From: a virus
Virus record (IMG/VR): IMGVR_UViG_3300045988_051752
Length of the DNA stretch: 42,218 nt
Strand: one strand, 5' to 3'
The position numbers and the translations under genes are program-made. Position 1 is the stretch's first letter; each line of letters begins with the position of its first letter. Below, one piece after another: positions 1 to 42,218 of the stretch. Below the pieces are notes generated by a model. It was not told the origin of the DNA and ran no database searches. It saw nothing but the letters and a program-made list of their open reading frames with translations.

Positions 1-75
1 AAGCAAGGCCGGTAGAATTGACAGCGGAAGATTTACAAGAACCGCAGATTGACGCACAGGCAAAAGAAAAAAAAG
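1..75. repeat. Terminal direct repeat, copy A (identical to 42144-42218)
   Basis: Base-by-base comparison: aagcaaggccggtagaattgacagcggaagatttacaagaaccgcagattgacgcacaggcaaaagaaaaaaaag occurs at both ends. Confidence 0.97.
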
Positions 76-3000
76 CGGTGCAGGAAAATGTACGCCAAAG
101 AGAAAAAGTACCGGAAACGGGCGCACAGCGAAGCGTAGAAGGGGTAAATTACAAAGGACTACAGGGAGATATCGAAGGAATAGACCGGGTAGAGAACGGA
201 AAGATTTATGCACGGGTAAACACAGGGGATGCAACAATCGTACAGCCGGTAAGCAACTTAAACTTCGACAATGCTGTCACGCAGGCGCTCTACCAGACAG
301 CAGAAGGATACAAAGATGCCGGAGCAAGAAATTTCGTGATGGAGTACAACGGAGAAAGCCTGATAGCGTACAAAAAAGGATTCAATGCGTATTACGATGC
401 AGCAACTGTAGGAATCCCGATGGGGAAAGTAAACAGCGTATACGGAAACATGCTTACAGAAAAACAAAAAGCAGCGGCGTATGCAGCTGGAGAAACAGAT
501 CTTAATTTCGAACAAAGGCATGAAAACTTAAAAGTGGCGCGTGAGACCAAAACAGCAGGATCGCAGGTGCTGGAAAACGACGCTTTCAGAAGCCTGACGA
601 AGGAAAACCAGACAATATTAAAGGCATATGCAAAGATGTCCGGGGCAAACGTGGTGGTAGACGAGACAATTTCAGCAGGAAACGGACGGTATGCGAACGG
701 CTACTACGACAATAACGGAACGATCCATATTGCAGCGGATGCCACAAGCCCGATAAGCGTAGTGGCAAACCACGAACTGACGCACTACCTGCAGCAATAT
801 TCACCGATTTATGATGAGTACAAGAATGAGGTCATCAACTATCTGATGCAAAAAGAAAACATGCCATTGGACGGTTTGATCGAAAGACATATGTCAAATT
901 ATGAGAATGCAGGCCGCCAGATTTCCAGAGAGGAAGCTATGGACGAAATCGTGGCAAATGCAAGCGAAATGTTCCTGACGGATGAATCAGCAGTACAGCG
1001 GATGGTAAAAGAAAACAGATCCATCGGAGAGAAAGTGCTGGACTTCTTTAAAGAATTTATTTCGAACTTGAAGAAAATGCTCGAAGGATACGAACCGAAG
1101 AGCAAAGAAGCACAGATGCTGAATGAAGACTTGGAAATGGCACGAAAAACAGAAAAGATCTGGCTGGAAGCCATGCAGGATGCGAAGCGAACGGGGGGAG
1201 GAGATGCGAGCATAGAAAATGTAAATGTAGCAGTAGCGAATGACGGAAGTGCATATAGAACATATTCCTTGAAGACATGGAACGAATCGGAGTACGCGAC
1301 GGAGAAGAAAAAGGCAGCAGAGGAGCTGGCAGAAGCGATCGGAGTAACGAAAAGAACAGCAACCGAATATATCAACAACATAAATAGCATCGCGGCAATC
1401 ATCGCGGAAGACAAGGAGAGGCTTGACTATAAGGCGTCGCCATACGGGAGCGCGTGGAAGTCGAACGCTGAATACGGAGGGTCGATAGACATGTCGACGC
1501 TGTGCCCGAAAAGAAGAATGTATACAGGGACGGTAGCAGAGATACAGAAGGCGATGCCGAACACGGCTCTGACAGCAGAAGACTATGTAAGCATAAGGTC
1601 AATGATGATGGAGAAAGGATACGAGGTGGCTTGCGGATTCTGCTATGTAGAATCATCAAGAAAAGACATAGGAAAATACACGGGGGAATTTCTGGAACAA
1701 TATAAAAAGGATCACCCAGAAAGCAATTACACACAAGTGGACTTCAACACACCAGAAGGCCTGGAAAAAGTACAGGAGTCAGACAAGGGGGCATACGACA
1801 AGTATCTGGAATTCATGAACAGGCTCGCGCAAAGAAAACCGAAATTATTTGAAAACAGGACAGAGTACAGACATGAGATACTGGATGCATTTAAGAGAAA
1901 GGAGACAATAGAAAAGAAAAACAAAAACGGGGGAGTTAGGTTACAAAGCTTCTCGGATTTTGAAACGCCACATTTGATAGATATGATGCAGGTGATCATC
2001 GACATGTCGAGGGTAGGGCTTGGAGGACAAGCATACACAAAAATGCCGAACTTCGCATGGGCGCTCGGAGATACCGGATTAAAGATAAACCTATCATTGG
2101 TAGGAAATGTGGATGAAAAAGGAAACCTAACGTTTGATGATGTGGAGGGCATGCCGATAGATGAGGCAATGAAACTGAGGAAACGGTATTCAAAAAACGT
2201 AGGAACGATCCTTGTGGGAGTGAGTGACGAACACATACTGGCAGCAATGAAAGATGATAGGATAGACTTCATCATACCGTTTCACAGAAGCCAATGGAAC
2301 AAAAGCCTATACTCTGCGCTGGGGATAGATGGGTACAAAGATTACACAAAGCTGCAGAATGAAAGCTACATCGAAGAAAGACGAAACAAAAACGGGAAAA
2401 AGATGCGTCCAAGCAATTTTATGCCAAACGAATACTGGGATTATTCAAAAACCGGGAAACAGAATGCGGAAAAATACTTAGAAATGTGTGCAGAGGATGG
2501 AAGAATTCCGAAATTCAGCAATTTTCTTAAATACAATGAAGACGGAACGTGGTCACTGAAAGAAGACGGAAGCACAGATGGATATTGGAAATTGCTGGGA
2601 GATTTCAAGATGTACGACAACGAAGGAAAGGGATCACCGCAGAAACCGGTAAAGCCGAAATTTAACATGGATGAATGCGAAAGGATACTGAACGAATACG
2701 AAGGAGGGCACCAAAGTTTCCCTGTGGCAAAAGATGTCGTAAGAGAATTTCTGGAAGAAAGAAAAGATAAGAAATTCATGATAAAAGAAGACATCAGATA
2801 TCAGATGGAGGATGCCTCCGAAGTAGACTACGATACGCTGAAAGCGGAAAACAAGGACCTGAAAGAATTAAACAGCATATTGGGAGGAATGATAAAGGCA
2901 ACAAAGGGAATAGAACCGGACCAGGATGCGATAAAGAAGGTCGGAAAGAAAATTCTGAAAGACTATAACTCGGATTATAATCTGGATACATTTACAAGAA

Positions 3001-6000
3001 ATATGACCGGTATATGGAAGTATATATCAGGATCCAAAAACATAGACGCAGAGCAGGTGGCAATAGCCACGGCGGACATGGCAAAGGGAATCCTGGAACA
3101 CGCAAAGGTAAATGTAAACGAGAGATACGCAGAGCAGTATAAAGATCTGGCAAAAGAGGTAAGACAGATCAAGCTGGAAGTGCCGGAAGAGATGAGGGGA
3201 GATTTCGACCGGGAAGGAGGATACGCGGAATTCCGAAAGAGAAATTTCGGAACGTTAAAGCTGGGAAAAGAAGGACAGAGCATTGATTCCTACTACCAGT
3301 CCCTGGCAGAAAGATACCCGGAGCTGTTTGACGAAACTATATACACCAACCCTGCGGATCGGCTCATGCACATAGCGGAAGTGATGGAAAGTATAAAGCC
3401 GAAGTATGAAAATGCATTTGGAATGGATCTTGATGAAGCAGCAGCGGATCTGGCGCATGAAATCTATCAGTCGTATTTTGATATTGCAGCAGGAAAAGGC
3501 TCTATTGATTCGATCAGAAAGAATGTGATAGAAAAAGAGCGGTTGAAATACAAGAAATACAGGGAGAAAATGCGGGATGATTACAAAAAGTACAGGGAAG
3601 AGTACAGAGGGAATTTTGCGCAGAGAAGAAAGGAGAACTTTGAAAAGAAAGCCTATTCGAAAAACATCGAACAGACAGCAAACAGATTAAGCAGATGGCT
3701 TTTGAATCCGACGAACACCAACAGCGTACCGGAGAGTTTAAGGGGGCCGGTGGCTGAATTCTTAAATTCCATCAATTTAAGCAGTAAGGACGTGAATGTG
3801 TACGGAAATCCCACGCAGAGAACGCTTAAATGGCAGGCTCTATCAAGGGCATATGAGAATATCATCAAAGCGCAGGACAAGTCGGAATACACGGGACAAT
3901 TCATAGACCTGGATCCGGATCTGGTAAACATGCTGAATGATCTGACGGAAAAGAATAAAGAGGTAATGCTTGCAGATATGACTGTGCAGGACATGAAGGA
4001 ATTGAACCGGCTGATAATGGCTGTGAAAAAATCCATCGAAAGCACGAACACATTACTTGCAACAGAGAACTACAAGAGAGTGTCAGATCTGGGAGAGAAG
4101 TTCCTGGAAGAAAACGAGAAAAAAGAAAGTGCAAAGGAAAGTGTATACGGAACCGTAAATACAGCAAGAAACTTCATGAAGCTGGATATGTTGGATTCAA
4201 GGACGTATTTCAATTCACTGGGAAAAGCAGGAATGGATATATACGGGGCATTGAGAAGCGGACTGGACAAAAAAACGAGAAATATCAAAATTGCGCACGA
4301 CTACATAAAAAATCTGATAGGAGAAACAGATATATCAGAGTGGTCGGGAGACAAGGCGAAGCTGCACGAATTCGAAACCGAGGGAAGGGAAGAGTTAAAA
4401 CTCACAACAGCACAAGTCATGAGCCTGTACAGATTGCTACAGAGAGACCAGGCAAAGAAACACATTCTGGAAGGAGGAATAAGGCCGGAAAAAACCATAA
4501 CAAAAGCAGGGAAGCTCAAAAAAGAAGTTACAAGATACTATGAACCGATACGGGTAACCGAAAAAGACCTGCTGAACATCATAGACACACTGACGCCGGA
4601 GCAGAAAAGGATTGCTGATGGAATCACGGATTTCTTCACTTCAACAACATCTGCCTGGGGAAACGAAGTGTCCATGCAGTTGTACGGATACAGGAAATTC
4701 ATGGCAAGAAACTACTTCCCGATCGTTTCGGATAACAGCTTTACGAATTCGGCAAGCGGAGACCAGCAGGGAAACGTACAGACCTTGAAAAACATGGGAA
4801 GTACAAAAGCGACCGTGCCGCATGCAGGAAACCCGATCATATTACAGGATATTTTTGATGTATATGCAAGGCAGTCCGACCAGATGGCAAGCTACAATGC
4901 ATTTGTGGTGCCGCTAACAGACCTGCAGAAGTGGTACAACTACAGAGGAGATCCTACGATAACGAAGTACAAAAAATCTGTAAAACAGACCATAACAAGG
5001 ACAATGGGGCAAAATGGAAGGGCATATCTGGACACCTTGGTGCGGAGAATAAACGGAGTAGCCGAGAAAGAAACGGCAAAACAGATATGGTCAAGCCTGA
5101 CATCGAACATGAAGTCTGCGGCAATCGGAGCGAACTTAAGAGTTGTACTGCAGCAGCCGACGGCGATTGTAAGAGCAGCAACCGTGATCGATGCAAAGTA
5201 CCTGATGAAAGGAATGGCAAAAAAAGCGGACGGAGACCAGATGAAGAAGTACGCACCGATAGCACAGTGGAAAGACTGGGGATATTTCGAAATGGACACC
5301 GGCCGGCAGATGAAGGATGTTATTCTTGGGAAGGAATCGTTGAAAGACAAAGCAATGGCACCGGCAGGAATGGCCGATGACTTCACATGGGGGAAAATCT
5401 GGAATGCGGTATTGTATGAAACGAAGGATAAAACGGACTTAAAACCGGGATCGGAAGAATTCTATCAGGCAGCAGGAAAGAGATTCTCTGAAATCATCGA
5501 CAGAACACAGGTTGTCGATTCCATCCTGCACAGGTCAAGTGTAATGATCCAGAAGGACAATGCGACAAAAATGGCAACATCCTTTATGTCGGAGCCTATA
5601 AAAACCTACAACATGGTCTACGACACGCTGATGAACACGCCGGGAGGAAAGAAGGAAGTCGCAAAGAGCATGGCAAAGCTGCTGGTGATCCTGACGGTAC
5701 AAAATGCAGTGAACGCACTGGCGCAGACACTGGCGGATGTATGGAGAGATGATGACGATGAAACAGCATGGGTGGATGTAGAAACATGGAAAGATAATTT
5801 CAAAGACAACATGAATCCACTTACATACATTCCGTACTTAAAGGAGATACCTTCGATATGGCAGGGATTTTCGGCAGAAAGGACGGAAATGACGGGTATC
5901 ACGGATTCGGTGCAGGGATTACAGAAATGGATCAAATACTTCCAGGGAGAATCAAAGTATACGGCAGCAGGGCTTGTGAGAGAATCCATGAAACCGATCA

Positions 6001-6938
6001 GTGAGTTGTCGGGAATGCCAATAAACTCCACGCTCAGAGAGTTTGAAAGCCTGGCGGATTTGATTGCATGGAACTATCGCAAGGTAACAGGAAACGAAAC
6101 TGCGAAAGCCGAGTATGAGATCAAAAAGACATTTTACAGAGCAGGAAGTCCGAAGAACAGAAATATGTTCATCGGACTTTACGGAAGAGCAAGGGAAGAG
6201 GGGGATTACAAAACAGCAGCAGCCATCTATAACGATCTGCAAAAAGCCGGGAACACCAAAGAAAGGCTTGACAATGCGTATAAGAAATGGAAGAAGAAAA
6301 GGGATGAGGGACTGCTGGAAGCAGATGAAGGCTTGCAGAAGGAAATAACAGAGGCATACAAAAACAACGACATGGAAACATTCAAATCCGCATCGGAAGA
6401 ATTGAAGAGCAAGGGTATAGACATTAACACCGCGCTGGATCAGATTGAAGACGAGGAAAAAGAGGAAGAGGAATACGAAGTGTCGGAAGTAACGCCGGAA
6501 GACCTGCAGAAGGAAGATAACACAGCAGAACTATACACCTTGCTTTACATGGCGACCCAAAACAATGATACACAGGCGCAGAACACATACAAAAAGCAGC
6601 TGAAAGAAGCTGGGGAAAAAGAGGAGGACTTCCAGAAAAACCTTTTAAAAGAGCAAAATGCCAAGGCTAAGGCAACAGGGGGAACGGAGTATAGCTACGA
6701 TGCACTGTTCAATGCTCTGGTATCCACAGAAGGGAAAAACGGCAAAAAGTATAAGGAAATAGAACAGGGGCTGAAAAAATACGGAAAAGACGATTCCACA
6801 ATAAAAAAATCCATGAAGTCCAGATTAAAAACAGCATATATGAACAGCAGAGGAAACGACAGGCTCACGAAAAAATATTCCGATTTGCTGAGAAGCTTCG
6901 GAGTGGACACACAAACGATTAAAGGATGGCTGGAATAA
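1..6938 (+). CDS. Giant multidomain protein, 3' part (stop TAA 6936-6938); combined ORF is 9,069 nt = 3,022 aa
   Basis: The frame is open from the first base. The track starts it at an internal TTG (18) only because the window begins there. It contains an HExxH motif (HELTH, 771-785), a Cys cluster (CPKRR...ACGFCYVE, from about 1503), and a long K/E-rich C-terminal tail. Coding-strand purine bias produces many spurious antisense ORFs. Confidence 0.85.
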   Translation, partial: ARPVELTAEDLQEPQIDAQAKEKKAVQENVRQREKVPETGAQRSVEGVNYKGLQGDIEGIDRVENGKIYARVNTGDATIVQPVSNLNFDNAVTQALYQTAEGYKDAGARNFVMEYNGESLIAYKKGFNAYYDAATVGIPMGKVNSVYGNMLTEKQKAAAYAAGETDLNFEQRHENLKVARETKTAGSQVLENDAFRSLTKENQTILKAYAKMSGANVVVDETISAGNGRYANGYYDNNGTIHIAADATSPISVVANHELTHYLQQYSPIYDEYKNEVINYLMQKENMPLDGLIERHMSNYENAGRQISREEAMDEIVANASEMFLTDESAVQRMVKENRSIGEKVLDFFKEFISNLKKMLEGYEPKSKEAQMLNEDLEMARKTEKIWLEAMQDAKRTGGGDASIENVNVAVANDGSAYRTYSLKTWNESEYATEKKKAAEELAEAIGVTKRTATEYINNINSIAAIIAEDKERLDYKASPYGSAWKSNAEYGGSIDMSTLCPKRRMYTGTVAEIQKAMPNTALTAEDYVSIRSMMMEKGYEVACGFCYVESSRKDIGKYTGEFLEQYKKDHPESNYTQVDFNTPEGLEKVQESDKGAYDKYLEFMNRLAQRKPKLFENRTEYRHEILDAFKRKETIEKKNKNGGVRLQSFSDFETPHLIDMMQVIIDMSRVGLGGQAYTKMPNFAWALGDTGLKINLSLVGNVDEKGNLTFDDVEGMPIDEAMKLRKRYSKNVGTILVGVSDEHILAAMKDDRIDFIIPFHRSQWNKSLYSALGIDGYKDYTKLQNESYIEERRNKNGKKMRPSNFMPNEYWDYSKTGKQNAEKYLEMCAEDGRIPKFSNFLKYNEDGTWSLKEDGSTDGYWKLLGDFKMYDNEGKGSPQKPVKPKFNMDECERILNEYEGGHQSFPVAKDVVREFLEERKDKKFMIKEDIRYQMEDASEVDYDTLKAENKDLKELNSILGGMIKATKGIEPDQDAIKKVGKKILKDYNSDYNLDTFTRNMTGIWKYISGSKNIDAEQVAIATADMAKGILEHAKVNVNERYAEQYKDLAKEVRQIKLEVPEEMRGDFDREGGYAEFRKRNFGTLKLGKEGQSIDSYYQSLAERYPELFDETIYTNPADRLMHIAEVMESIKPKYENAFGMDLDEAAADLAHEIYQSYFDIAAGKGSIDSIRKNVIEKERLKYKKYREKMRDDYKKYREEYRGNFAQRRKENFEKKAYSKNIEQTANRLSRWLLNPTNTNSVPESLRGPVAEFLNSINLSSKDVNVYGNPTQRTLKWQALSRAYENIIKAQDKSEYTGQFIDLDPDLVNMLNDLTEKNKEVMLADMTVQDMKELNRLIMAVKKSIESTNTLLATENYKRVSDLGEKFLEENEKKESAKESVYGTVNTARNFMKLDMLDSRTYFNSLGKAGMDIYGALRSGLDKKTRNIKIAHDYIKNLIGETDISEWSGDKAKLHEFETEGREELKLTTAQVMSLYRLLQRDQAKKHILEGGIRPEKTITKAGKLKKEVTRYYEPIRVTEKDLLNIIDTLTPEQKRIADGITDFFTSTTSAWGNEVSMQLYGYRKFMARNYFPIVSDNSFTNSASGDQQGNVQTLKNMGSTKATVPHAGNPIILQDIFDVYARQSDQMASYNAFVVPLTDLQKWYNYRGDPTITKYKKSVKQTITRTMGQNGRAYLDTLVRRINGVAEKETAKQIWSSLTSNMKSAAIGANLRVVLQQPTAIVRAATVIDAKYLMKGMAKKADGDQMKKYAPIAQWKDWGYFEMDTGRQMKDVILGKESLKDKAMAPAGMADDFTWGKIWNAVLYETKDKTDLKPGSEEFYQAAGKRFSEIIDRTQVVDSILHRSSVMIQKDNATKMATSFMSEPIKTYNMVYDTLMNTPGGKKEVAKSMAKLLVILTVQNAVNALAQTLADVWRDDDDETAWVDVETWKDNFKDNMNPLTYIPYLKEIPSIWQGFSAERTEMTGITDSVQGLQKWIKYFQGESKYTAAGLVRESMKPISELSGMPINSTLREFESLADLIAWNYRKVTGNETAKAEYEIKKTFYRAGSPKNRNMFIGLYGRAREEGDYKTAAAIYNDLQKAGNTKERLDNAYKKWKKKRDEGLLEADEGLQKEITEAYKNNDMETFKSASEELKSKGIDINTALDQIEDEEKEEEEYEVSEVTPEDLQKEDNTAELYTLLYMATQNNDTQAQNTYKKQLKEAGEKEEDFQKNLLKEQNAKAKATGGTEYSYDALFNALVSTEGKNGKKYKEIEQGLKKYGKDDSTIKKSMKSRLKTAYMNSRGNDRLTKKYSDLLRSFGVDTQTIKGWLE
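771..785 (+). other. HExxH (HELTH) zincin-type metallopeptidase motif inside the giant ORF
   Basis: Sequence context is IHIAADATSPISVVANHELTHYLQQYSP. This is the classic zinc-binding HExxH pattern preceded by a hydrophobic strand. Assignment to the polyvalent-protein metallopeptidase family is from memory, not a search. Confidence 0.5.
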
Positions 6939-7043: not shown

Positions 7044-7340
7044 GTGACAAACGAAGAGATTGCTGTTTTTCTGACCAAACACAAGGAAGAGATTGGATCG
7101 CTAAAGCATCGAATGAATGAGCAAGAGGAGAACAGCAAGACGATCCAGAATCTGGCGTTATCCGTGCGAGACCTGGCAGTAAACATGAAGAACATGATGA
7201 CAGAGCAGCAAAGAGCCAATGACCGGCTGGAAGCGCTGGAAGCAAAAGACGGGGAAATGTGGCGAAAGGTAGTAGGATATGTCGTAACACTGCTGATCGG
7301 CGCAGTGTTTGGATATATCACAAAACAAATCGGAATGTAG
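7044..7340 (+). CDS. xhlA: XhlA-like lysis-associated membrane protein (coiled coil + C-terminal TM)
   Basis: GTG start 7 nt after AAAGGAGGA (7028-7036). 98 aa with a coiled-coil N-terminus, DRLEALEAKDGEMWRK, then TM VVGYVVTLLIGAVFGYI. It sits immediately upstream of the holin, as in PBSX xhlA-xhlB-xlyA. Confidence 0.6.
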   Translation: MTNEEIAVFLTKHKEEIGSLKHRMNEQEENSKTIQNLALSVRDLAVNMKNMMTEQQRANDRLEALEAKDGEMWRKVVGYVVTLLIGAVFGYITKQIGM

Positions 7341-7350
7341 GAGGTATAAG

Positions 7351-7587
7351 ATGTTTAAAAATTGCGTATTTAAAGTATCCGTAGATACGAAAAAATGGGT
7401 AAAAGCGGCAGCAGTAAGGGCTGTGAAGACCATGGCACAGACGGCAGTGGTTACAATCGGAGCAGCGTCTGTCATGGAGGATGTCAGCTGGGGGATGGCG
7501 GTAAGCGCGGCAGTGCTGACGGGAATTGTGTCGGTGCTGACAAGCATTGCGGGAATTCCGGAGGTGCCGGATGAAAACGAGCAGTAA
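7351..7587 (+). CDS. Holin (r1t / phiLC3-like)
   Basis: ATG at 7351 after GGAGG. 78 aa. N-terminal motif KAAAVRAVKTMAQTAVV, two hydrophobic segments, C-terminal SIAGIPEVPDE. Overlaps the endolysin start. Confidence 0.75.
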   Translation: MFKNCVFKVSVDTKKWVKAAAVRAVKTMAQTAVVTIGAASVMEDVSWGMAVSAAVLTGIVSVLTSIAGIPEVPDENEQ

Positions 7588-8188
7588 AGGAATCGCATTA
7601 ATCAAAAGCTTTGAAGGATGCAGGTTGCGGGCATACAGAGACAGCGTAGGGGTGCTCACGATCGGATATGGCCACACCGGAGACGTAAGAGAAGGACAGG
7701 TTATATCCCAAGGATTCGCAGAAGAACTGCTGAAAGCAGACCTGACAAGATTTGAAAGGAATGTAACAAGGTATACACCTTTTGAAATGAACCAGAATCA
7801 GTTCGATGCTCTTGTTTCGTTTGCTTTTAACTGCGGAGCTGGAAACCTGAAAAAGCTGGTATCAGGAAGAAATAAAGACCAGGTGGCAAGAAAGATCCTG
7901 GAATACAACAAGGCCGGAGGAAGGGTTTTGGCAGGTCTGACAAGGAGAAGACAGGCGGAAAGAGCATTATTCCTGTCCGGGGGAAACAGAACACTGAAAA
8001 ACGGAAGCAGAGGGGATGATGTCAAGGAACTCCAGAGGATACTGACGAAGGAGGGCTTCCCGTGCGGAGCGGCAGACGGAATCTTCGGGAAAGCAACGAA
8101 GAAAGCGGTGATCGAATACCAGAACAGAGAAGGACTTGTAGCGGACGGGATCGTCGGAGAAAAGACGTGGAAAGCATTAGGAAAATAA
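7571..8188 (+). CDS. Endolysin: GH24 lysozyme domain + C-terminal PG_binding_1 domain
   Basis: GIALIKSFEGCRLRAYRDSVGVLTIGYGHT is the T4/lambda-type lysozyme signature with catalytic Glu. The C-terminus DVKELQRILTKEGFPCGAADGIFGKATKKAVIEYQ...GIVGEKTW is a peptidoglycan-binding repeat. Confidence 0.92.
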   Translation: MKTSSKGIALIKSFEGCRLRAYRDSVGVLTIGYGHTGDVREGQVISQGFAEELLKADLTRFERNVTRYTPFEMNQNQFDALVSFAFNCGAGNLKKLVSGRNKDQVARKILEYNKAGGRVLAGLTRRRQAERALFLSGGNRTLKNGSRGDDVKELQRILTKEGFPCGAADGIFGKATKKAVIEYQNREGLVADGIVGEKTWKALGK

Positions 8189-9692: not shown

Positions 9693-9757
9693 GTGTATAT
9701 TATAGTAATCATCGTTGTACTGGTTCGTCGGTACAACGATGATAGAATTATATACAC
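9693..9757. other. Candidate attP: 65-bp imperfect palindrome abutting the integrase 3' end
   Basis: Outer arms gtgtatat (9693-9700) / atatacac (9750-9757). Inner arms atcatcgttgtac (9708-9720) / gtacaacgatgat (9731-9743). 10-bp centre tggttcgtcg. Overlaps the integrase stop codon (9748-9750). Confidence 0.4.
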
Positions 9758-11307
9758 AAATTTGCGTCAACAGAAATATCCCAGACAATCCAGCCACGGT
9801 TCGTGGCACCGGCCTTTCTGACCGGGGGCTCCCGGTAATAGGAAATCTTCTCGATACAGGATTTTAACATACGGTTCTTGGCCTCTGCGGTAATGTCTGA
9901 ATCATCCAGGGCGGCGAGAGCAGCGGAGAACCGGCCGCGTTTTTCCTCAATGGCCTCCCGGGTGGGAACTTCGGAGAGAATGGAATAGATAGAAGCCTGC
10001 ACAGCGGCCTTATCTTCGGCCACACGCCGGTTCAGTTCATCGAATACGTTTTTTGGCATTTGTTCCTCGGCGTACTTATCCCACAGAGAGATTTCTTTCT
10101 TATCCAGGGCGGCCAGGCGCAAGCGAAGCGAGGAGAGCGTTTCTTCCCGGGAGGCCATGGCGGCAGCAGAATCTTTGAGCTGCACGTCAAAATCGTGAAT
10201 GGCCTGCTTCAAAATGCGGACAACGATTTCTTCCGCCTCCTCGAAAGTACAGGAACCGGTATGGCAGACACGCTGCATATCACAGAGGATACGGGGGCCA
10301 GTCTTGGGGTATGTGTGATAGCTCATGGCGTGGCCACACCGGCAGACGAAAAGACCGGCAAAAGGATTACGAACCTTCACCTTATCCTTGGCACGGGTGA
10401 CCTTCCCGGAGATTTTCTGGGCAGCGCCAAACAGCTCCGAATCAATGATTGCCGGGTGCCTGCCGTCGTGCAGCTCATATTCGCTGCTCCATGGGCGGCT
10501 GGATTCCACGGAGCCGCTATGAACGGAGTGGACAACCTTCCGACGGTTCCAGAAAACTTTTCCGGTATAGACGGGGTTCTGCAGGATACTCTTCACGCAG
10601 TTATATGTCCACGAATCATTGTTTCGAGGATGAGTACCTTGGAGGTTCAGCTGCTTGGCAATACGGGAGGGGCCAAGATCTTCGACGGCCCGCATTCGGA
10701 AGATCTGTCGGACAACAGAAGCTTCGGCGGGATTGATGCAAAGCGTGTAATGCTTCTTCTTTCCTTCCAGGACAAAGGTCTTGTCATACCCGTAAGGGGC
10801 AACGGAACCGATGTAATCGCCCTGACGGACGGCTTGCAGGCGGCCGCGGCTCATGATCTTCTTCTGATATTCCAGATATTCATTTCCTCTTTTCAGCTCA
10901 CGTTCAAAGATATCCCGATCGTATTCGTCGGACAGGTCATAAGTTTTGCTGGGTGTGATGACATTCGTGCGGGTGTAGCGAAGGATCTTGATGAGACGCC
11001 CTGCGTCTTCCAGGTCGCCGCGGGAGAGACGCTGAACCTCAACGCACAAAATGGCTTTAATGGCTGGAGATTCAATACGCCGGAGAACGGAGAGAAATTC
11101 CGGGCGGTCGTCAATCGTCTCCCCGGACACGACCTCTCGATATTTGTTTTCTGCTGGGATACAGCAGTCATGCCTTTCGGCCCAATCAGATAAAATGGAT
11201 TCGTGCTTTTGCAGCACATCTTCGACGGATAGACTGGGATCATCGGCCCTGGATTTTCGCAGGTACTCGATGATCTCATCAGAACGATAAGAAAGTTCTC
11301 GATACAT
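9748..11307 (-). CDS. int: Large serine recombinase (integrase), phiC31/SpoIVCA class
   Basis: N-terminal resolvase motifs YLRKSRAD (catalytic Ser), DRPEFLSVLRRIE and VEVQRLSRGD. Central recombinase domain, Cys-rich zinc ribbon CRCGHAMS...CDMQRVCHTGSC, C-terminal coiled coil. RBS AGGGGGA. Confidence 0.92.
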   Translation of the reverse strand: MYRELSYRSDEIIEYLRKSRADDPSLSVEDVLQKHESILSDWAERHDCCIPAENKYREVVSGETIDDRPEFLSVLRRIESPAIKAILCVEVQRLSRGDLEDAGRLIKILRYTRTNVITPSKTYDLSDEYDRDIFERELKRGNEYLEYQKKIMSRGRLQAVRQGDYIGSVAPYGYDKTFVLEGKKKHYTLCINPAEASVVRQIFRMRAVEDLGPSRIAKQLNLQGTHPRNNDSWTYNCVKSILQNPVYTGKVFWNRRKVVHSVHSGSVESSRPWSSEYELHDGRHPAIIDSELFGAAQKISGKVTRAKDKVKVRNPFAGLFVCRCGHAMSYHTYPKTGPRILCDMQRVCHTGSCTFEEAEEIVVRILKQAIHDFDVQLKDSAAAMASREETLSSLRLRLAALDKKEISLWDKYAEEQMPKNVFDELNRRVAEDKAAVQASIYSILSEVPTREAIEEKRGRFSAALAALDDSDITAEAKNRMLKSCIEKISYYREPPVRKAGATNRGWIVWDISVDANLCI

Positions 11308-32845: not shown

Positions 32846-32855
32846 GGAGACATAC

Positions 32856-36301: not shown

Positions 36302-37891
36302 ATGGAGACACTGCCAAGCCTTACGGCATCTTCAAGGACGGTGCAGTCAGTATCTGATTTCAGGGGATACAACCACAACCTGGTAATTGACGATAACCAA
36401 TTTTACGACATGAGAAACCTGTCGCTGGATGAATACCCGGTACTGACGCAGCGCCAGCCACGCGGAACAATAAAAAAACTGAATAAACCAAATGGATTGT
36501 TCGCGAAAAACAAGATCGTATATGTAGATGGGACAAATTTTTATTACGGAGATGAACTGATAGCGCAGGTGACGGACAGCAAAAAGCAGTTTGCATCTAT
36601 GGGAGCCTATATCCTGGTATGGCCGGATAAGATCATGTACAACACGTTCGATGGCACAATCACAAAACTGGAGAACAAAACGGAATTTACAGGGACGGTA
36701 AAGATCGAAAAGGCCAATATCTCAGATTCCCAGCAGACAACAACGGACTACACATCGTATGTAAGGATCACTGCAACGGGAATAGGAAAAGGGTTCAAGC
36801 AGTACGACGGTGTATCCATATCCGGAATCTCACAGGAAGATCTGAATGCAACGAAAGTGCTCTGGGAAGTGGCAGATGATTCTGTGCTGGTGGTTGGATC
36901 CGTAGAAAAGACGATAGTAGAACAGATGACGATCACCCTAGAAAGAAAAGTGCCGGACATGGAATTTTTCACGGAATCAGAAAACCGGTTATGGGGATGC
37001 TCTTCGAAGAATCATGAATTATACGCATGCAAAATCGGGGACCCGACAAACTGGAACGCTTTTGAAAACCTGTCAACGGATTCCTATGCGGTAACGATTG
37101 GCTCAGACGGGGACTTCACGGGAGCGGCAACGTACATGGGATACGTCCTGTTCTTCAAGGAGGACACAATCCACACGGTCATGGGAAACAAACCGGCCAA
37201 CTATCAGGTGCAGGGATCCAAGGGAAGAGGAATAGAGAAAGGATCGGAGCTTTCACCGGTGATTGTAAACGAGACGCTATATTACAAGGCAAGAACCGGA
37301 ATCGTAGCGTACCAGGGAACGTCAGCAACATCCATAGCTTCAGACATGGGAACGGTACAATACAAAGATGCTGTGGCAGGGTATCTGGGAAACAAATATT
37401 ACTGCTCCATGAAACAGGGAGAAAAATATTATCTGTTCTGCTACGATGAAAGTAAGGGGATGTGGACAAAGGAAGATGAGACGCAGGCGCTCTTCATGGC
37501 AACACTGGGAAACAACCTGTACTACATAGATGCAGAAGGGTATTTAAAAACCATCACAGGAGAGGATAACGAGAACATCCAGTGGGAAGCAATCTCGGGA
37601 GAGATCATGATGGCATACAACAGAAAATACCTGTGCAAGATCAATATCCGGGCTACGCTGGAAGAAAGAGCCACACTGGAGGCCTGGGTGCAGTACGACA
37701 ATGAAAAAATCTGGATCAGGGTGGCAACGATCACAGCCAAAAAGCACAGGGCCTATGATATTCCGGTCATGCCGCACCGGTGCGATCGGTTAAGGGTAAA
37801 ATTATCCGGGCGCGGGAAAAGTTGGATATATGGAATAGACAAGCAATTTGAGATGGGAAGTGATGTATGTGTCAACATGGGGCGGCATTGA
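36302..37891 (+). CDS. Large structural protein, 529 aa (tail hub/nozzle candidate)
   Basis: RBS AAGGAGG. Beta-rich repetitive pattern. The call rests on position only. Confidence 0.6.
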   Translation: METLPSLTASSRTVQSVSDFRGYNHNLVIDDNQFYDMRNLSLDEYPVLTQRQPRGTIKKLNKPNGLFAKNKIVYVDGTNFYYGDELIAQVTDSKKQFASMGAYILVWPDKIMYNTFDGTITKLENKTEFTGTVKIEKANISDSQQTTTDYTSYVRITATGIGKGFKQYDGVSISGISQEDLNATKVLWEVADDSVLVVGSVEKTIVEQMTITLERKVPDMEFFTESENRLWGCSSKNHELYACKIGDPTNWNAFENLSTDSYAVTIGSDGDFTGAATYMGYVLFFKEDTIHTVMGNKPANYQVQGSKGRGIEKGSELSPVIVNETLYYKARTGIVAYQGTSATSIASDMGTVQYKDAVAGYLGNKYYCSMKQGEKYYLFCYDESKGMWTKEDETQALFMATLGNNLYYIDAEGYLKTITGEDNENIQWEAISGEIMMAYNRKYLCKINIRATLEERATLEAWVQYDNEKIWIRVATITAKKHRAYDIPVMPHRCDRLRVKLSGRGKSWIYGIDKQFEMGSDVCVNMGRH

Positions 37892-38783
37892 CATACCGAA
37901 TATAAAATCAGATGACCTGCTGAACGAAAAAAAGATAAGCATGATAATGCAGCAGCTACAGCTGATTGACAGAAACATAAGGTTTGCAATGTACAATCTG
38001 GATCCGGAAGAGAATTTTGACAAAGCAGCGCTTGCCTCATACAACGGGCTGAAATCAGAAGTAAAGAAGCTGGGAAAGGATGGGACGGAATACAGAACAC
38101 TCATCGAGCAGACGGAAGAAAAGATAAGGCTGGAAGCGGAGCGGGCATCGGCAGCAGAAGGGAAACTAAGTGCAGCCCTGGAAGTGACCGCAGAGGGGAT
38201 AGCATCCAAGGTGTCAAAGGACGGGATCATATCAGCAATAAACCAGTCGGCAGAACAGGTATTAATACAGGCGCAGAAAATAAATCTGGACGGAGAACTG
38301 ACAGCGGGAGAAAACTTCCGTCTGAACATCAACACAAACACAAAACTATATGACGTCCTGGGGCTGAATTACAAAGATGGAGTGCACACGTTAATGACAG
38401 GCATTAAGCCGGGAGACGTTGCGGTACATTTCGACGACATTGCAGCAAGCATGAGCACGGACGGGTTTGCCTTTTCGAAGGACGATGGGACAATAGATGC
38501 ATTGTACGGGAAAAACGCATACACGAAAGGATACGGAGATTTCAGAGGGGGAATATTTGTAGGTTCCGGGTCGGGACTGGCAACAAGGTACGGGGACAAG
38601 ATGATAATTCAGGATTATGCAAATGGGAATGTAGCAGTCAATGCGGCGGGAGATACACTGCACATAGGAATGAGCAATACAAACGAGGTATCAATAGAAA
38701 AGCCAACGACAGTATTCGGAGACCTGACCGTATACGGAGTTATAAGATACAGGGATTCTGAAATAATAGAGCAGGAGGGATAA
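37863..38783 (+). CDS. Fibre-like minor structural protein, 306 aa
   Basis: Coiled-coil region followed by DGIISAINQSAEQVLIQAQKINLDGE, which is typical of phage minor structural/fibre proteins. ATG at 37863 (alternative TTG at 37848). Confidence 0.6.
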   Translation: MYVSTWGGIDIPNIKSDDLLNEKKISMIMQQLQLIDRNIRFAMYNLDPEENFDKAALASYNGLKSEVKKLGKDGTEYRTLIEQTEEKIRLEAERASAAEGKLSAALEVTAEGIASKVSKDGIISAINQSAEQVLIQAQKINLDGELTAGENFRLNINTNTKLYDVLGLNYKDGVHTLMTGIKPGDVAVHFDDIAASMSTDGFAFSKDDGTIDALYGKNAYTKGYGDFRGGIFVGSGSGLATRYGDKMIIQDYANGNVAVNAAGDTLHIGMSNTNEVSIEKPTTVFGDLTVYGVIRYRDSEIIEQEG

Positions 38784-38784: not shown

Positions 38785-40002
38785 GTGGCGACATATCAGA
38801 TCAAGAAAGGAGATACACTTTCAGGAATTGCGAAGCAGTACGGCGTATCGGTGGGAGATATTGCCTCTGCCAACGGAATCAGCAACCCGAACAAAATAAG
38901 CGCAGGGGCAACACTGACGATCCCTGGGGGTGGCGGGGCAGCGAGCACATCATCAAGCAGTGCATCATATTCTTCTTCATCATCAGGCGGGAGGCCGGCA
39001 TACGCGCCGTCAGACCGAACAAATGAAGCTTATGAGAAATATCAGACAGCACAGAACAACAAGCCGAATGCATACCAGGAATCCCAGACACTGGGAGACT
39101 TAAGGAAGCAGTTAGAAGATTTTGAAACAAAGAAACCGGGAGATTATCAGAGTGCATACAAAACGCAGATAGATGATATTCTGGGTCAGATCTTAGGCAA
39201 AGGGGACTTTAACTGGGATCCGAACAAAGACCAACTCTACCAGTCCATGGCAGACCAATACAGGGTAAAAGGAAACAAAGCCATGAGGGATACCATGGGA
39301 AGTGCAGCAGCCATGACGGGAGGGTATGGATCTTCCTACGCGACAACAGCGGGGCAGCAGGCGTATGACGACTACATGCAGCAGTGGGCAGATCGGGCAA
39401 CGGACTACTACAACATGGCCTTACAGCAGTACAACAGCGAAATGAACAATCTAAACAACAAAATGTCAGCACTTCGGACGGCGGATGACACGGACTACGG
39501 AAGATACCGCGACACGGTAAATGACTGGTACACAGACAGAAATTACCTAACAGACAAGGTAAATACCCAGTACGACAACGAATACGGGCAGTACCGGGAT
39601 ACGGTAAGCGATTATTACAATGACCTGGAAGCGGCAAGAGCGCTGTATCAGCAGCTGTACGGGGAGGATTGGGACAAGTACCAGTCAGATCTCAGCCAGT
39701 ACAACACAGACAGAAACTATGATTTTGAAGTAGCACAGGCAGACAGAGAATATCAGCTAGCCCTGAAAAAGCTTGCGGCATCAGGAAGCGGATCATCTAA
39801 AAGCACACCCAAAAAAGGAGAGAAGATTACATACAATGAAGCAATAATGGGGGCAAGCAGAAAAGGGACAAGCAAATCGGCGCAGCTAAACTATGCAAAT
39901 AAATTGCTGGATAATGGAAATGTGTCGGATTCTGATTATACAAAACTTCTAAACCAAATCATAGGAGGATATGCACCGGGATATACAAAGACAAAGAAAT
40001 AA
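38785..40002 (+). CDS. LysM-domain protein with a Ser-rich linker and a Y/D/N/Q-rich repeat domain, 405 aa
   Basis: GTG after GGAGGGA. LysM segment YQIKKGDTLSGIAKQYGVSVGDIASANGISNPNKISAGATLTIPG. Repeated YG.YRDTV.D.Y motif. Confidence 0.8.
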   Translation: MATYQIKKGDTLSGIAKQYGVSVGDIASANGISNPNKISAGATLTIPGGGGAASTSSSSASYSSSSSGGRPAYAPSDRTNEAYEKYQTAQNNKPNAYQESQTLGDLRKQLEDFETKKPGDYQSAYKTQIDDILGQILGKGDFNWDPNKDQLYQSMADQYRVKGNKAMRDTMGSAAAMTGGYGSSYATTAGQQAYDDYMQQWADRATDYYNMALQQYNSEMNNLNNKMSALRTADDTDYGRYRDTVNDWYTDRNYLTDKVNTQYDNEYGQYRDTVSDYYNDLEAARALYQQLYGEDWDKYQSDLSQYNTDRNYDFEVAQADREYQLALKKLAASGSGSSKSTPKKGEKITYNEAIMGASRKGTSKSAQLNYANKLLDNGNVSDSDYTKLLNQIIGGYAPGYTKTKK

Positions 40003-40012
40003 GGAGGAGAAC

Positions 40013-42218
40013 ATGGCATCACAGGCACAGATTAAAGCAAGAGAAAATATTATGAATATTAGAAGAAAACGGGAAGAAGAGGAGAACTCTTCCCGTTTTT
40101 CGTATTCAGAGAATGAAGACCCGATGACAGTGGCAAGAAGAAACATATCCACGATCAGAGGAAAGCAGCTGACGGATAACACAAGCAGATTAGACAGCCT
40201 GAGAAAGTCAGCAGAGGAAAGAAGAATAAGGCAGGAAGCGCTGAATAAATACAAGAGGATCGTAGGAACGGATAATGCGGAAGAAGTAAAGAGAATAAGC
40301 AGTGTAGGACAGGCGTTGGACGAAAGAATACAAAGGTCAATGGGCGTCAAGGGAGACAGGATCGGCTCAGAGAGACTGGAAAGAGCTGTAGCTTTGGATC
40401 GAATGAAAAAAAGCACAGCAGAAAAGAATGCACTTGAAAAAGACACGCAGTATTACAAAAGGCTTCTGACAGATGATTCCCAGATGGATGCAAGCACCAG
40501 AAGACAGGCGCTTGAAAAATTAAAAAGGACCATCATGACAGAACAGATCACCGGGGATTCAAAGACGCTTTCCGACCTTTCCAAAAGCTTCTCAAACGCA
40601 ACCGGAAAGAAGGTATCACAGACAGATGCCTATCAGATGCTGGAAAATGCCCAGGGACAAATCGACCGCGACAAATACGACCAGAAGATGGGAGAAAAGC
40701 GGAAAGAGCTGGAAAAGGTTCTGGATGAAAAGGGATTTGAAACAGCGGCAAAAAAAGGAAGCCAGATTGCACAAAAAAAGACAGTATACAATGCTGATAT
40801 GCTGGCAGGATACCAGAACGAGGACAAATCATACCCTGATATTTTCAAGAACCAGACAGAGTACGAACAGTACCAGGACATGGCAGATACAGAGAAGGAT
40901 GTATTTGATTACTATCTGGCCACAGAAGGAGTACAGAAAGCAAAAGAATACTTAAATACCATAAAGAGGGATATCACAAAGAGACAGAACGAAGCTTACA
41001 CAGAAAAAATGAAGCAGTATGCAACGGAACACCCTGTATTATCATCGGATTCCTCGGTGGCAGCAGGATTTGCAACAGGCCTCGGAGCTTTGGAGACTAT
41101 ACGCCAGAATGCAGAGAACGTCCTGACGGGAAACAATGTGCCGGTAGACATCAATTCAAAACTGTTCAGACCGATAAATGCCCAGAATACAATCAGAAAC
41201 ACTGTGATGGAAAACTTCCGGGGAAGCGAAGATGTAAAAGCACTAAAGAGATTCCTGTATCAGACCGGAATGTCTATGGCAGATTTTGGAACACAGGCGG
41301 CAGCAGGAGCATTAGTGGGAGGATTTGCAGGAGAAGCCGCATCTTTTGCCGGAGCATCTGCAGAGAGGGCGGCACAGATCACAGCAACGATATCGAAGAA
41401 CGCATCACTTCCGATCATGGGAGCAGGAGCAATGTCCCAGACAGTGAAAGAAGTAATCGAGAATGGAGGAACCAACGATCAGGCTATGCAGCTGGGACTG
41501 ATTGCGGGAGCGGCGGAAATGGTAACGGAGAGGCTGGGAATCGACAATCTTTCTAAGTTATCAAGCCAGGGTGTAAATTCTGTAAAGAGGGCAGTACACA
41601 AGATCATCGCAGAAGGTGCGATCCCGGAAGGTCTGGAAGAAGTTGTTTCGGACATCGTAAACAACGTTGCCAACGACGCGATCATGCAGGAAAACTCCGA
41701 TTTTAATCAGGCTGTTGAGCGGTACATGACACCGAATGCAATGACGGGGGAACACATTTCAAGAAGACAGGCAGAAGATCTGGCAATGAAAGACAGAATC
41801 AAGAATATGGCACTTTCATTTGCAGGAGGGGCACTGTCCGGCGGAATCATGGCAGCAGGAGCCTACGGAAGCGGATATGTCGAGGGAGGAAAAACAGGAA
41901 GAGCGCTGAATGAGTACTACGGAATCAGCGACGAAACATTGATAAATGACGCAAAGGCACTGGAAGGAACAAATGCAAAGGAATTAGCAGAATACTACGA
42001 GGGAAAAGGAAAGCTCACAGACAGAAAAAAAGCAGAATTATACAATCAGATTTTAAAGGACACAAAAGGAGAATACACACCATCACCGGAAATCACACAG
42101 AACAAGACGGAAGATACACAGACCGGGGAGGGAATCGCACAGGAAGCAAGGCCGGTAGAATTGACAGCGGAAGATTTACAAGAACCGCAGATTGACGCAC
42201 AGGCAAAAGAAAAAAAAG
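40013..42218 (+). CDS. Giant multidomain (polyvalent-type) virion/ejection protein, 5' part; the ORF leaves the window and continues at 1..6938
   Basis: RBS AAGGAGGAG at 40001-40009, ATG at 40013. My manual translation finds no stop in this frame up to 42218. Its phase matches ORF 18..6938 once the 75-bp overlap is collapsed (42146 corresponds to position 3). It is missing from the ORF track because it has no in-window stop. The N-terminal region is Ala/Gly-rich and hydrophobic (GAGAMSQ..., MALSFAGGALSGGIMAAGAYG). Confidence 0.85.
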   Translation, partial: MASQAQIKARENIMNIRRKREEEENSSRFSYSENEDPMTVARRNISTIRGKQLTDNTSRLDSLRKSAEERRIRQEALNKYKRIVGTDNAEEVKRISSVGQALDERIQRSMGVKGDRIGSERLERAVALDRMKKSTAEKNALEKDTQYYKRLLTDDSQMDASTRRQALEKLKRTIMTEQITGDSKTLSDLSKSFSNATGKKVSQTDAYQMLENAQGQIDRDKYDQKMGEKRKELEKVLDEKGFETAAKKGSQIAQKKTVYNADMLAGYQNEDKSYPDIFKNQTEYEQYQDMADTEKDVFDYYLATEGVQKAKEYLNTIKRDITKRQNEAYTEKMKQYATEHPVLSSDSSVAAGFATGLGALETIRQNAENVLTGNNVPVDINSKLFRPINAQNTIRNTVMENFRGSEDVKALKRFLYQTGMSMADFGTQAAAGALVGGFAGEAASFAGASAERAAQITATISKNASLPIMGAGAMSQTVKEVIENGGTNDQAMQLGLIAGAAEMVTERLGIDNLSKLSSQGVNSVKRAVHKIIAEGAIPEGLEEVVSDIVNNVANDAIMQENSDFNQAVERYMTPNAMTGEHISRRQAEDLAMKDRIKNMALSFAGGALSGGIMAAGAYGSGYVEGGKTGRALNEYYGISDETLINDAKALEGTNAKELAEYYEGKGKLTDRKKAELYNQILKDTKGEYTPSPEITQNKTEDTQTGEGIAQEARPVELTAEDLQEPQIDAQAKEKK
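42144..42218. repeat. Terminal direct repeat, copy B (identical to 1-75)
   Basis: Same 75-mer as bases 1-75. It lies inside an open reading frame, which fits an assembly overlap of a circular molecule better than a physical terminus. Confidence 0.97.

Follow-up and report, generated by a model that had tools for sequence, protein, structure and literature searches.

A 3,022-codon gene spanning the circular junction of a podovirus-like phage genome probably encodes a polyvalent protein with an exchangeable central cassette

The giant gene presented here probably belongs, as a single late gene, to a temperate, podovirus-like Clostridia phage, and its product would be a polyvalent protein that is packaged, injected and self-processed and that carries an early effector cassette. 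It lies in a 42,218-nt stretch of viral DNA (IMG/VR record IMGVR_UViG_3300045988_051752), called the window below. Earlier publications already describe this kind of protein, what it probably does and that such phages carry it, and our comparisons indicate that this protein belongs to the polyvalent proteins described by Iyer et al. (2017).

The window begins and ends with the same 75-bp direct repeat, positions 1-75 matching 42144-42218 exactly, a sign that the assembly is circular or circularly permuted; copy 1 lies inside the giant gene, and deleting copy 2 closes the circle at 42,143 bp. Computed on this circle, the gene runs on the plus strand from 40013 to 42143 and on from 1 to 6938, with 3,022 codons and 9,069 nt including the stop, or 21.5% of the genome. 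Its 5' part (40013..42143) encodes amino acids 1-710 and the first base of codon 711, and its 3' part (1..6938) supplies the last two bases of that codon and ends with the stop codon at 6936-6938. A Shine-Dalgarno-like AAGGAGGAG, read from the sequence at 40001..40009 on the plus strand, places its GGAGG core 5 nt before the ATG at 40013 and shares bases with the TAA that ends the preceding LysM gene; the closest in-frame stop 5' of this ATG is at 39962-39964. The frame contains no stop from 40013 to 42218 and is in phase with ORF 18..6938 once one repeat copy is removed. In an independent 41,605-bp ENA contig (L001), in which the gene is internal, the homologue P0001 (3,024 aa) aligns over residues 1-3022 at 97.6% amino-acid identity, and a 1,200-nt segment spanning our junction aligns to the same contig over 1,198 nt at 94.7% identity with 0 gaps. 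The giant gene is confirmed as one real, uninterrupted ORF across the closed junction. The initial annotation was therefore right about the start and its ribosome-binding site, the stop-free frame in phase with the downstream ORF, and the length and genome share of the joined gene; the re-calling it had proposed returned a single ORF, in agreement with the gapless junction and the intact homologue, and the mechanical ORF list does hold merely a 2,306-aa fragment at 18..6938 with a TTG start. Its statement that the gene exists only when the circle is closed did not survive, because other assemblies and published prophages of the same type (PMC11318856) have it as one ORF. The circle of those other assemblies opens at other places and leaves the giant gene whole, and the apparent split is thus a linearisation artefact with no biological meaning. 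ORF callers that ignore circularity cut short or overlook the largest gene of this phage, a miscall that is remedied by rotating DTR contigs ahead of gene calling.

Judged by its gene content, the genome looks like that of a temperate podovirus of Clostridia, Lachnospiraceae-like. The late block is ordered TerL, portal, major head protein, collagen-like fibres, internal virion protein, minor head protein, LysM protein, giant gene and lysis genes, so that the giant gene adjoins late and virion genes of the phage. Immediately upstream, all on the plus strand, are an internal virion protein homologue (36302..37891; phrog_511, E 2.1e-67), a minor head or Gp58-like protein identified by profile matches (37848..38783) and a LysM-domain protein (38785..40002; Pfam LysM, E 1.7e-16, with weak matches to transglycosylase/endolysin-type PHROGs). 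Downstream on the same strand, a lysis cassette comprises an XhlA/hemolysin-like gene, a holin and an endolysin (7044..8188; profile matches), and these assignments bear out the earlier placement of the gene between a LysM protein and the lysis genes. That placement had been read as a tape measure or ejection-protein slot. The podovirus internal/ejection-protein part of this reading stands, with PHROG matches of the neighbours to internal virion protein, minor head protein and tail fibres; the tape measure part falls, as the large ORFs scanned against PHROG and Pfam gave no match to a tail tube, sheath or tape measure protein. A large serine recombinase on the minus strand (integrase, 9748..11307; phrog_95, E 2.6e-80), whose orthologue carries Resolvase and Recombinase Pfam domains, points to a temperate lifestyle. 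Across 50,697 GenBank phage records, tblastn matches were confined to unannotated human-faecal contigs and a 23% portal match to Bacillus phage PK1, with no cultured relative.

The giant protein is a member of a very large family of giant phage proteins of 2,400-7,700 aa. The first query gave 508 matches, and a size that had seemed unusual for a 42-kb temperate phage proved common: relatives of 2,400-3,900 aa number in the hundreds on contigs of ~40-44 kb, and 8-kb ORFs are reported in PMC11318856. The nearest Enterocloster homologue compared (P0077, 2,646 aa) aligns at only 36% identity across roughly half of the query. Pfam returned nothing above threshold for the whole protein, with sub-threshold HTH-type matches at aa 1142-1179, NCBIfam returned zero matches, and the sole PHROG match was phrog_22978, of unknown function. 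Sequence searches of the PDB with both protein halves found no chain at E <= 1 beyond low-complexity or coiled-coil noise, and profiles of the cassette and metallopeptidase regions likewise retrieved only such noise. The domain search suggested at the outset was in this way productive for the C-terminal core, through PHROG 22978, and yielded no Pfam, NCBIfam or PDB match of the protein's own. Four conserved modules could be delimited, namely a metallopeptidase-type module and a predicted enzyme cassette, whose predicted activities are disparate, an N-terminal region and a C-terminal region, and a zincin-like hub (HExxH plus downstream Glu) is present in this copy at the motif level. PBECR3, PBECR5, ART-PolyVal, MuF_C, LPD3, LPD38 and Zeta toxin domains are found in relatives. 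The signature Pfam domains of polyvalent proteins (LPDs, PBECR, ART-PolyVal, MuF_C) are absent from this protein and occur in homologues, in the equivalent slot or added to it, so that membership follows from homology of the scaffold and not from a signature domain of its own.

The N-terminal ~340 aa are charged and helical (coiled-coil) and give way to a Gly/Ala-rich region in which an acidic EGxEE motif is conserved family-wide; searches of Pfam, NCBIfam and the PDB matched nothing in this N-terminal part (40013..42143). Within 41036..41869 (plus strand) lie three Gly/Ala-rich segments of weak hydrophobicity (aa 342-360, 429-450 and 596-619); their Kyte-Doolittle maxima of 1.1-1.4 stay under typical transmembrane values and do not support calling them transmembrane helices. 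The module at 237..1187 on the plus strand (aa 790-1106) contains HELTH at aa 968-972 (nt 771-785) and a downstream Glu, E1026 (nt 945-947). These residues (H, E, T, H and the Glu) do not vary among 15 diverse relatives, and 26 of 28 sequences carry them too. Pfam DUF6782, described as a putative metallopeptidase, is matched by six of the 15 relatives, with a best E of 1.8e-5, and the module of this copy has no Pfam match; from motif and conservation it is predicted to be a zincin-like metallopeptidase. At the other end of the protein, the conserved C-terminal core (2811..6848, plus strand; aa 1648-2993) matches PHROG 22978 with E 2.4e-255 and is followed by a K/E-rich helical tail that reaches aa 3022. 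An AF2 model of this core (pLDDT 74, pTM 0.66) consists largely of alpha-helices and includes one small beta-sheet; the helix at aa 2599-2624 is moderately hydrophobic. Foldseek found no PDB match for it (best E 0.33), and the fold search detected no likeness to known ejection proteins, including those of gp14/15/16 type.

Between these regions lies a swappable cassette (1179..2810, plus strand; aa ~1104-1647), delimited by the DNA-level replacement boundaries in two sister genomes (L019 and L020). It consists of a short HTH-like helical lead-in followed by a barrel-like (beta/alpha) predicted enzyme, and its AF2 model has a pLDDT of 85 and a pTM of 0.83. Three cysteines are invariant, C1212 (nt 1503-1505), C1255 (1632-1634) and C1258 (1641-1643), with the spacing C-x42-C-x2-C (C-x42-C-x-F-C); D1363/E1365, K1391, N1407, H1472/S1474 and C1540 are also conserved, and in the predicted structure the conserved polar residues fall at strand ends. 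Foldseek comparison of the model with the PDB gave no significant match (best E 0.13, TM <= 0.28), its top neighbours there all being TIM barrels, none significant, with which the alternating beta-alpha pattern and the placement of conserved residues are in keeping; in BFVD a single match was significant, to an uncharacterised phage protein (E 1.9e-20). We interpret the cassette as a predicted, uncharacterised barrel-like enzyme in which the cysteine triad may form one metal or cluster site. Both the barrel-like shape and the single site are inferred rather than read from coordinates, and the models of the cassette and the C-terminal core were built on shallow alignments (22 and 28 sequences). 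A radical SAM enzyme was considered for the C...CxFC motif, a 'GG' strand and a G-x-I-x-x-G strand, and was rejected for lack of a significant profile or fold match: CxxxCxxC is absent, C-x42-C-x-F-C standing in its place, Pfam Radical_SAM gave no match, and QueE and other radical SAM structures appeared in the Foldseek search of the cassette only at E >= 1.4 and probability <= 0.2.

The cassette is exchanged as a unit between genomes that are otherwise 94-96% identical. In L019, window positions 1179-2782 are replaced by 2,193 nt encoding PBECR5, and in L020 positions 1197-2810 are replaced by 668 nt encoding PBECR3, in both cases with sharp DNA boundaries. The barrel-like version is common to only four of 19 close relatives, and the alternatives in sister genomes are predicted to be the RNases PBECR5 and PBECR3 or other modules. 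The domain itself is abundant (2,226 clusters at 50% identity) and is found nearly always within phage proteins of 2,000-7,700 aa; relatives such as P0096 combine the same metallopeptidase and barrel with LPD38. In another phage contig a stand-alone 630-aa gene for the cassette domain is flanked by genes for 2H/RelA-SpoT and ART-PolyVal and lies ahead of the lysis genes, which supports the cassette working as a separable unit, and a 755-aa protein joining the barrel to MuF_C is encoded among ordinary metabolic genes of a bacterial contig. The motif [FY]SLK occurs 230 times against 42 in shuffles, an enrichment that is a lead only, as it is confounded by homologous copies within the barrel domain. 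A second hot spot close to the cassette gains or loses a Tad2-like gene.

Taken as a late gene product, the giant protein would be packed in the capsid with the internal virion proteins encoded just upstream and expelled through the short tail, with or before the DNA. The N-terminal (coiled-coil, Gly/Ala-rich) and C-terminal alpha-helical parts could provide the packaging and ejection functions, and the zincin-like HExxH...E module may cleave the polypeptide in cis into units. The central cassette would then act as an early effector in the newly infected cell, in counter-defence or host takeover; in this phage that effector would be the uncharacterised barrel-like enzyme, its three conserved cysteines forming a metal or cluster site. 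A bolder version, which we offer tentatively and consider rather doubtful, holds that the cassette represents a large undescribed family of virion-delivered metallo- or Fe-S barrel enzymes, early counter-defence or takeover effectors that can functionally stand in for PBECR RNases at a recombination hot spot of the giant gene, and that [FY]-S-L-K, recurring at module junctions, marks the sites at which the metallopeptidase frees each module.

These ideas draw on systems that have been described before. Polyvalent proteins are effectors that are injected, combine several domains around a metallopeptidase hub and are encoded by late genes (Iyer, Burroughs, Anand, de Souza & Aravind 2017, PMC5512222). 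The protein studied here resembles them in its giant size, multiple domains, location among late virion genes, HExxH hub and domain shuffling between related elements, but differs in that this copy has none of the Pfam-modelled polyvalent domains and in that its cassette and its conserved N- and C-terminal regions are absent from Pfam and NCBIfam; the main text of PMC5512222, as distinct from its supplementary LPD alignments, makes no mention of a barrel, cysteines or Fe-S. Similar by description, the level at which they were compared, are LM41 phi1 and phi4 of Clostridium (Enterocloster) clostridioforme, ~41-kb podovirus-like prophages that form podovirus-like particles by TEM and carry, at the late end of the prophage, an 8-kb ORF that occupies ~20% of the genome and has been annotated for its similarity to large polyvalent protein domain 3 (PMC11318856). 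They share with our phage the temperate podovirus-like type, the Lachnospiraceae association and one ORF of ~20% of the genome; neither domain anatomy nor cassette variation is described in that study (PMC11318856). Stx phage phi24B, likewise a temperate podovirus, encodes gp47, a 2,811-aa LPD/MuF-C polyvalent protein with a metallopeptidase that was found in virions by proteomics and is proposed to be a capsid-packaged ejection protein (bioRxiv 10.64898/2026.04.10.717836). Unlike our protein it comes from a phage of a Proteobacterial host and carries LPD5, LPD1, LPD38 and MuF-C; the two are linked only via relatives such as P0096, and tblastn found no similarity of the giant protein to an annotated phage in the 50,697 records, a set that may not include phi24B.

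A purely structural pilot or conduit protein through the Gram-positive envelope, comparable to T7 gp14-16 and with a cassette directed at the cell wall or envelope, is an unlikely account. The gene does follow those for the internal virion, minor head and LysM proteins, the N- and C-terminal regions are long and alpha-helical, glycosidases and a glycerophosphodiesterase are among the weak, non-significant Foldseek matches to the cassette, and those who studied phi24B propose that gp47 acts as a conduit (bioRxiv 10.64898/2026.04.10.717836). In the same slot, however, PBECR RNase-type domains also occur and, among relatives, ADP-ribosyltransferase domains, all predicted to act on intracellular substrates, and no fold likeness was seen to T7-type core proteins or to any PDB entry. 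Like T7 gp14/gp15/gp16, the gene comes after tail genes and before lysis, its product is largely alpha-helical, and a function in binding or cleaving peptidoglycan lies close by, here in a separate LysM protein; unlike them, it encodes one giant polypeptide instead of three, has exchangeable enzyme cassettes and has no sequence or fold likeness, and with no PDB match for the C-terminal core the analogy to the T7-type core holds by position alone. Structural and effector roles are compatible, so this account competes with the injected polyvalent protein only in its strict form. We consider it improbable, too, that the protein is a polymorphic-toxin-like or superinfection/competition factor of the lysogen or its particles with no part in establishing infection. 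Cassette polymorphism among near-identical genomes resembles the swapping of polymorphic toxin C-termini, relatives carry MuF_C, RNase-like and Zeta toxin domains, MuF polymorphic toxins are known from temperate phages (PMC5576092), and the 755-aa barrel and MuF_C protein lies in a bacterial contig; yet the variable module is central rather than C-terminal, lysis genes and no neighbouring immunity gene come next downstream, and the giant gene sits within the late structural block.

Size has invited two further comparisons, both of which fare worse. Coliphage N4 gp50, a virion RNA polymerase of ~3,500 aa, is packaged in the podovirus capsid and injected. Its metallopeptidase-containing N-terminal part is needed for encapsidation (PMC5512222). 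A polymerase like gp50 or the crAss-like gp66 giant proteins would fit the comparable size, the podovirus context and the fused metallopeptidase, but it is very improbable here: no polymerase module is detectable, neither protein part matched a PDB chain by sequence at E <= 1, no Pfam or PHROG match to an RNA polymerase was found, and none appeared in the Foldseek results for the cassette and C-terminal core (aa 1-790 and 1646-1960 lie outside these models). That the gene encodes a tape measure protein from a phage with a long tail, as the large size, helical content, Gly/Ala-rich segments and location before the lysis genes might suggest, has next to no probability. Tail length scales at roughly 0.15 nm per residue as a rule of thumb, by which 3,022 aa would mean a tail of ~450 nm; the scanned large ORFs offer no tail-assembly chaperone either, the genes around it encode internal virion, minor head and fibre proteins, and published relatives make podovirus-like particles (PMC11318856).

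For the injected polyvalent protein that we favor, near-identical genomes with one giant virion gene, in which the cassette encodes a barrel-like enzyme or else PBECR5 or PBECR3, constitute a natural experiment. The cassette domain, abundant and strongly conserved and with no Pfam, NCBIfam or PDB entry, is a candidate for biochemical characterisation, and its exchange points to where gut Clostridia phages keep fast-evolving early effectors.

The giant protein of this phage is encoded by a single gene that spans the point at which its circular genome was opened. Identical 75-base stretches stand at the start and the end of the window, and removal of one copy leaves a 42,143-bp circle. The ATG at 40013 is preceded by AAGGAGGAG at 40001-40009, directly downstream of the TAA of the previous gene, and the closest in-frame stop upstream lies at 39962. 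Its reading frame stays open through the window end and runs in phase across the join into ORF 18..6938, giving a gene (40013 to 42143 plus 1 to 6938, + strand) of 9,069 nt including the stop, or 21.5% of the genome, with a product of 3,022 aa; the mechanical ORF list shows it only as '18..6938, 2306 aa, TTG'. P0001, a 3,024-aa relative whose gene lies inside an independent 41,605-bp ENA contig, matches residues 1-3022 of the rotated ORF at 97.6% identity, and when 1,200 nt with the junction at their centre are compared with the same contig, 1,198 nt align with 0 gaps. The in-phase frame, the unbroken orthologue and the gapless junction thus bear out the initial annotation in proposing one ORF across the closed circle. 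Its description of this ORF as hidden does not describe a biological property, as the gene is intact in the P0001 contig and in two more sister contigs, L019 and L020. Because the frame is continuous at the join and the gene unbroken in independent contigs, the hidden appearance reflects the point of linearisation of a circular (or circularly permuted) assembly.

PHROG and Pfam scans of the neighbouring genes place the giant gene in a late, virion-associated context. The large terminase (25582-27012), portal (27000-28853), major head protein (30180-31202), collagen-like tail fibres (31544-33551), internal virion protein (36302-37891; phrog_511), minor-head/Gp58-like protein (37848-38783) and LysM protein (38785-40002) precede it, the last immediately. 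An XhlA-like protein, holin and endolysin (7044-8188) follow, then four small ORFs and a large serine recombinase on the opposite strand (9748-11307, -). Tail tube, sheath, tape measure and chaperone had 0 matches among the large ORFs scanned, and the predicted layout is that of a temperate podovirus. Searches of the GenBank phage collection found no cultured relative. The predicted host is a gut member of the Clostridia, because relatives of the conserved C-terminal core (aa 1648 onward) fall in genomes and MAGs of Lachnospiraceae (66% identity), Alitiscatomonas, Blautia and Oscillospiraceae in a scan of species-representative genomes.

A candidate tail fibre (31544-32845, +) carries collagen-like repeats at aa ~140-220 and matches many PHROG tail-fibre families. 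In the 537-aa ORF at 34312-35925, which has no family match, the DNA stops aligning or aligns less well to each of the three sister contigs at ~34535-35720, while its flanks are 89-96% identical; the interval is possibly a variable segment of a receptor-binding or tail protein. An 85-aa ORF (9406-9663, +), flanked by the lysis genes and the integrase and conserved in the sister contigs, resembles rubrerythrin/ferritin in Pfam (E 5.6e-7) and could be a moron. The region just past the giant gene contains a second variable hot spot at ~7340, on the border between the XhlA-like gene (7044-7340) and the holin (7309-7587), where the P0001 contig has a ~490-nt insertion (15478-15966) encoding a Tad2-like protein (PF11195, anti-Thoeris family) and L020 has ~870 nt (14541-15412) encoding DUF6275 and a Tad2-like protein; both inserts are absent from the window and from L019.

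Homology identifies the giant protein as a relative of the polyvalent proteins. It had 0 matches above threshold in Pfam and 0 in NCBIfam, PDB sequence searches returned 0 matches for either part of it, and its sole PHROG match was phrog_22978 (function unknown; E 2.4e-255, aa 1648-2993). The first homology search returned 508 proteins, typically of 2,400-3,900 aa on contigs of ~40-44 kb, many of which carry Pfam domains defined from polyvalent proteins, namely PBECR5 (E 2.7e-53), PBECR3, ART-PolyVal, MuF_C, LPD3 and LPD38, all confirmed by rescan; a Zeta-toxin domain was listed too. This protein class is already known: polyvalent proteins occur in phages and conjugative elements as large, multi-domain products that join unrelated enzymatic activities, usually with a zincin-like metallopeptidase, and those of phages lie among late genes and are predicted to enter the cell together with the DNA (Iyer et al. 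2017, PMC5512222).

Pairwise and profile comparisons divide the giant protein into four parts. The first (aa 1-~790) begins with ~340 highly charged, helical residues followed by a Gly/Ala-rich region, and also holds a family-wide acidic motif. Three weakly hydrophobic segments in the Gly/Ala-rich region (aa 342-360, 429-450 and 596-619) were considered as transmembrane helices and rejected, their Kyte-Doolittle maximum of 1.1-1.4 being too low. The second part (aa ~790-1106) bears a putative zincin-like metallopeptidase signature, HELTH at 968-972 with E1026, supported at the level of the motif in the giant protein's own copy. A diverse alignment of 15 sequences shows no variation at these positions, and 26 of 28 full-length relatives have them; the Pfam 'putative metallopeptidase' DUF6782 is matched by six of 15 relatives (best E 1.8e-5). 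The third part (aa ~1104-1647) is a swappable cassette, and the fourth (aa 1648-3022) is the conserved core that matches phrog_22978. For core aa 1960-2830, AlphaFold2 predicts from a shallow alignment (pLDDT 74, pTM 0.66) an almost wholly alpha-helical structure with one small sheet, which matches nothing in the PDB (best E 0.33).

Comparison of near-identical genomes shows that the cassette is exchanged at sharp boundaries. The DNA of the window and L019 is 94.6% identical up to 1178 and 96.5% identical again from 2783; in between, 1,604 nt of the window stand against 2,193 unrelated nt encoding PBECR5. In L020, window 1197-2810 is exchanged for 668 nt encoding PBECR3, and among 19 close relatives, whose C-terminal cores are >90% identical, only four share the window's cassette. 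Distant relatives carry it beside extra effector domains (MuF_C and ART-PolyVal in P0025, LPD3 and ART in P0072) or with a different C-terminus (LPD38 in P0096). It is also the best-conserved part of the giant protein, with a median identity of 51% versus 31% for the core (54 relatives, query aa 712-3022); a larger set, biased in being partly selected by cassette similarity, gives 55% versus 30%. By exhaustive HMMER search the cassette occurs in 2,226 clusters (50% identity), nearly always within proteins of 2,000-7,763 aa. P0248 (7,763 aa) and others with the same cassette (4,000-7,763 aa) are among the largest phage-type proteins that we encountered.

Some genomes encode the cassette in a gene of its own, as in a 630-aa ORF just before the lysis genes of another phage contig, L018. 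There (6013-14905) the polyvalent content is three adjacent genes preceding GH108 lysin and holin genes, in the order 2H phosphoesterase plus RelA/SpoT (636 aa), barrel domain alone (630 aa) and ART-PolyVal (1,671 aa), and polyvalent domains therefore probably also work as separate proteins. P0123 (755 aa; contig L016, 8001-10268) combines the cassette with MuF_C among ordinary metabolic genes of a 44-kb bacterial contig, including SAM synthetase, an ECF transporter and an aminotransferase, and is perhaps a domesticated copy or a remnant, with no recognisable prophage around it.

The AlphaFold2 model of the cassette (pLDDT 85, pTM 0.83; shallow alignment of 22 sequences) predicts a two-helix lead-in, corresponding to sub-threshold Pfam HTH matches, followed by the strand/helix alternation of a (beta/alpha) barrel. 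Strongly conserved polar residues (S/D1363/F/E1365, Y-T-K1391, N1407-L-S and P-F-H1472-x-S1474) fall on the predicted strands or directly behind them, the usual location of active sites in barrel enzymes. Three cysteines, C1212 in 'TLCxKR' and C1255 and C1258 in 'CGxCYVE', are invariant in all sequences covering them, and a fourth, C1540, is kept in 18 of 19. Foldseek found no significant PDB structure (best E 0.13), the weak top matches all being TIM-barrel enzymes of many unrelated chemistries, and the only real match in BFVD was another uncharacterised phage protein (E 1.9e-20). The C...C-x-aromatic-C pattern had prompted a radical-SAM-like reading, which we rejected given the C-x42-C-x2-C spacing and the lack of profile or fold support. 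Our committed reading is that the cassette is a predicted enzyme with a Cys-ligated metal or cluster site, deployed as one of several alternative effector modules. A more specific proposal, that it represents a new family of metallo/Fe-S barrel effectors that are injected and then freed at conserved junction motifs, we consider rather unlikely. A short [FY]-S-L-K-type motif recurs where successive modules begin in family members ('KSFSLKEDV', 'VKFSLKEDK', 'RTYSLKTWN'); in the giant protein the sites are YSLK (aa 1132-1135, window 1263-1274) and YQME (aa 1644-1647, window 2799-2810), and P0005, P0010, P0012, P0026 and P0038 have the motif at the same positions. Its 230 occurrences versus 42 in shuffles overstate the enrichment, as the barrel domain contains a homologous copy, and it could be a peptidase cleavage site, a linker or a recombination-junction mark.

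By the polyvalent family concept (PMC5512222) and experimental analogues, the giant protein would be packaged in the capsid, co-ejected with the DNA and processed by its in-cis peptidase, and the cassette would act early and intracellularly. One analogue is N4 gp50, a packaged and injected protein (summarised in PMC5512222); the other is phi24B gp47, an LPD/MuF-C protein of 2,811 aa that proteomics detected in podovirus virions and that has been proposed to act in ejection (bioRxiv 10.64898/2026.04.10.717836). The giant-ORF phenomenon is shared with C. clostridioforme LM41 phi1 and phi4, ~41-kb temperate podovirus-like Lachnospiraceae phages in which one ORF of ~20% of the genome resembles large polyvalent proteins (PMC11318856); the LM41 particles are podovirus-like by TEM (PMC11318856). 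What our analysis adds is the domain-level anatomy of the giant protein, the demonstration of cassette replacement within near-identical genomes, and the recognition of this phage's cassette as an abundant, strongly conserved and unannotated predicted enzyme.
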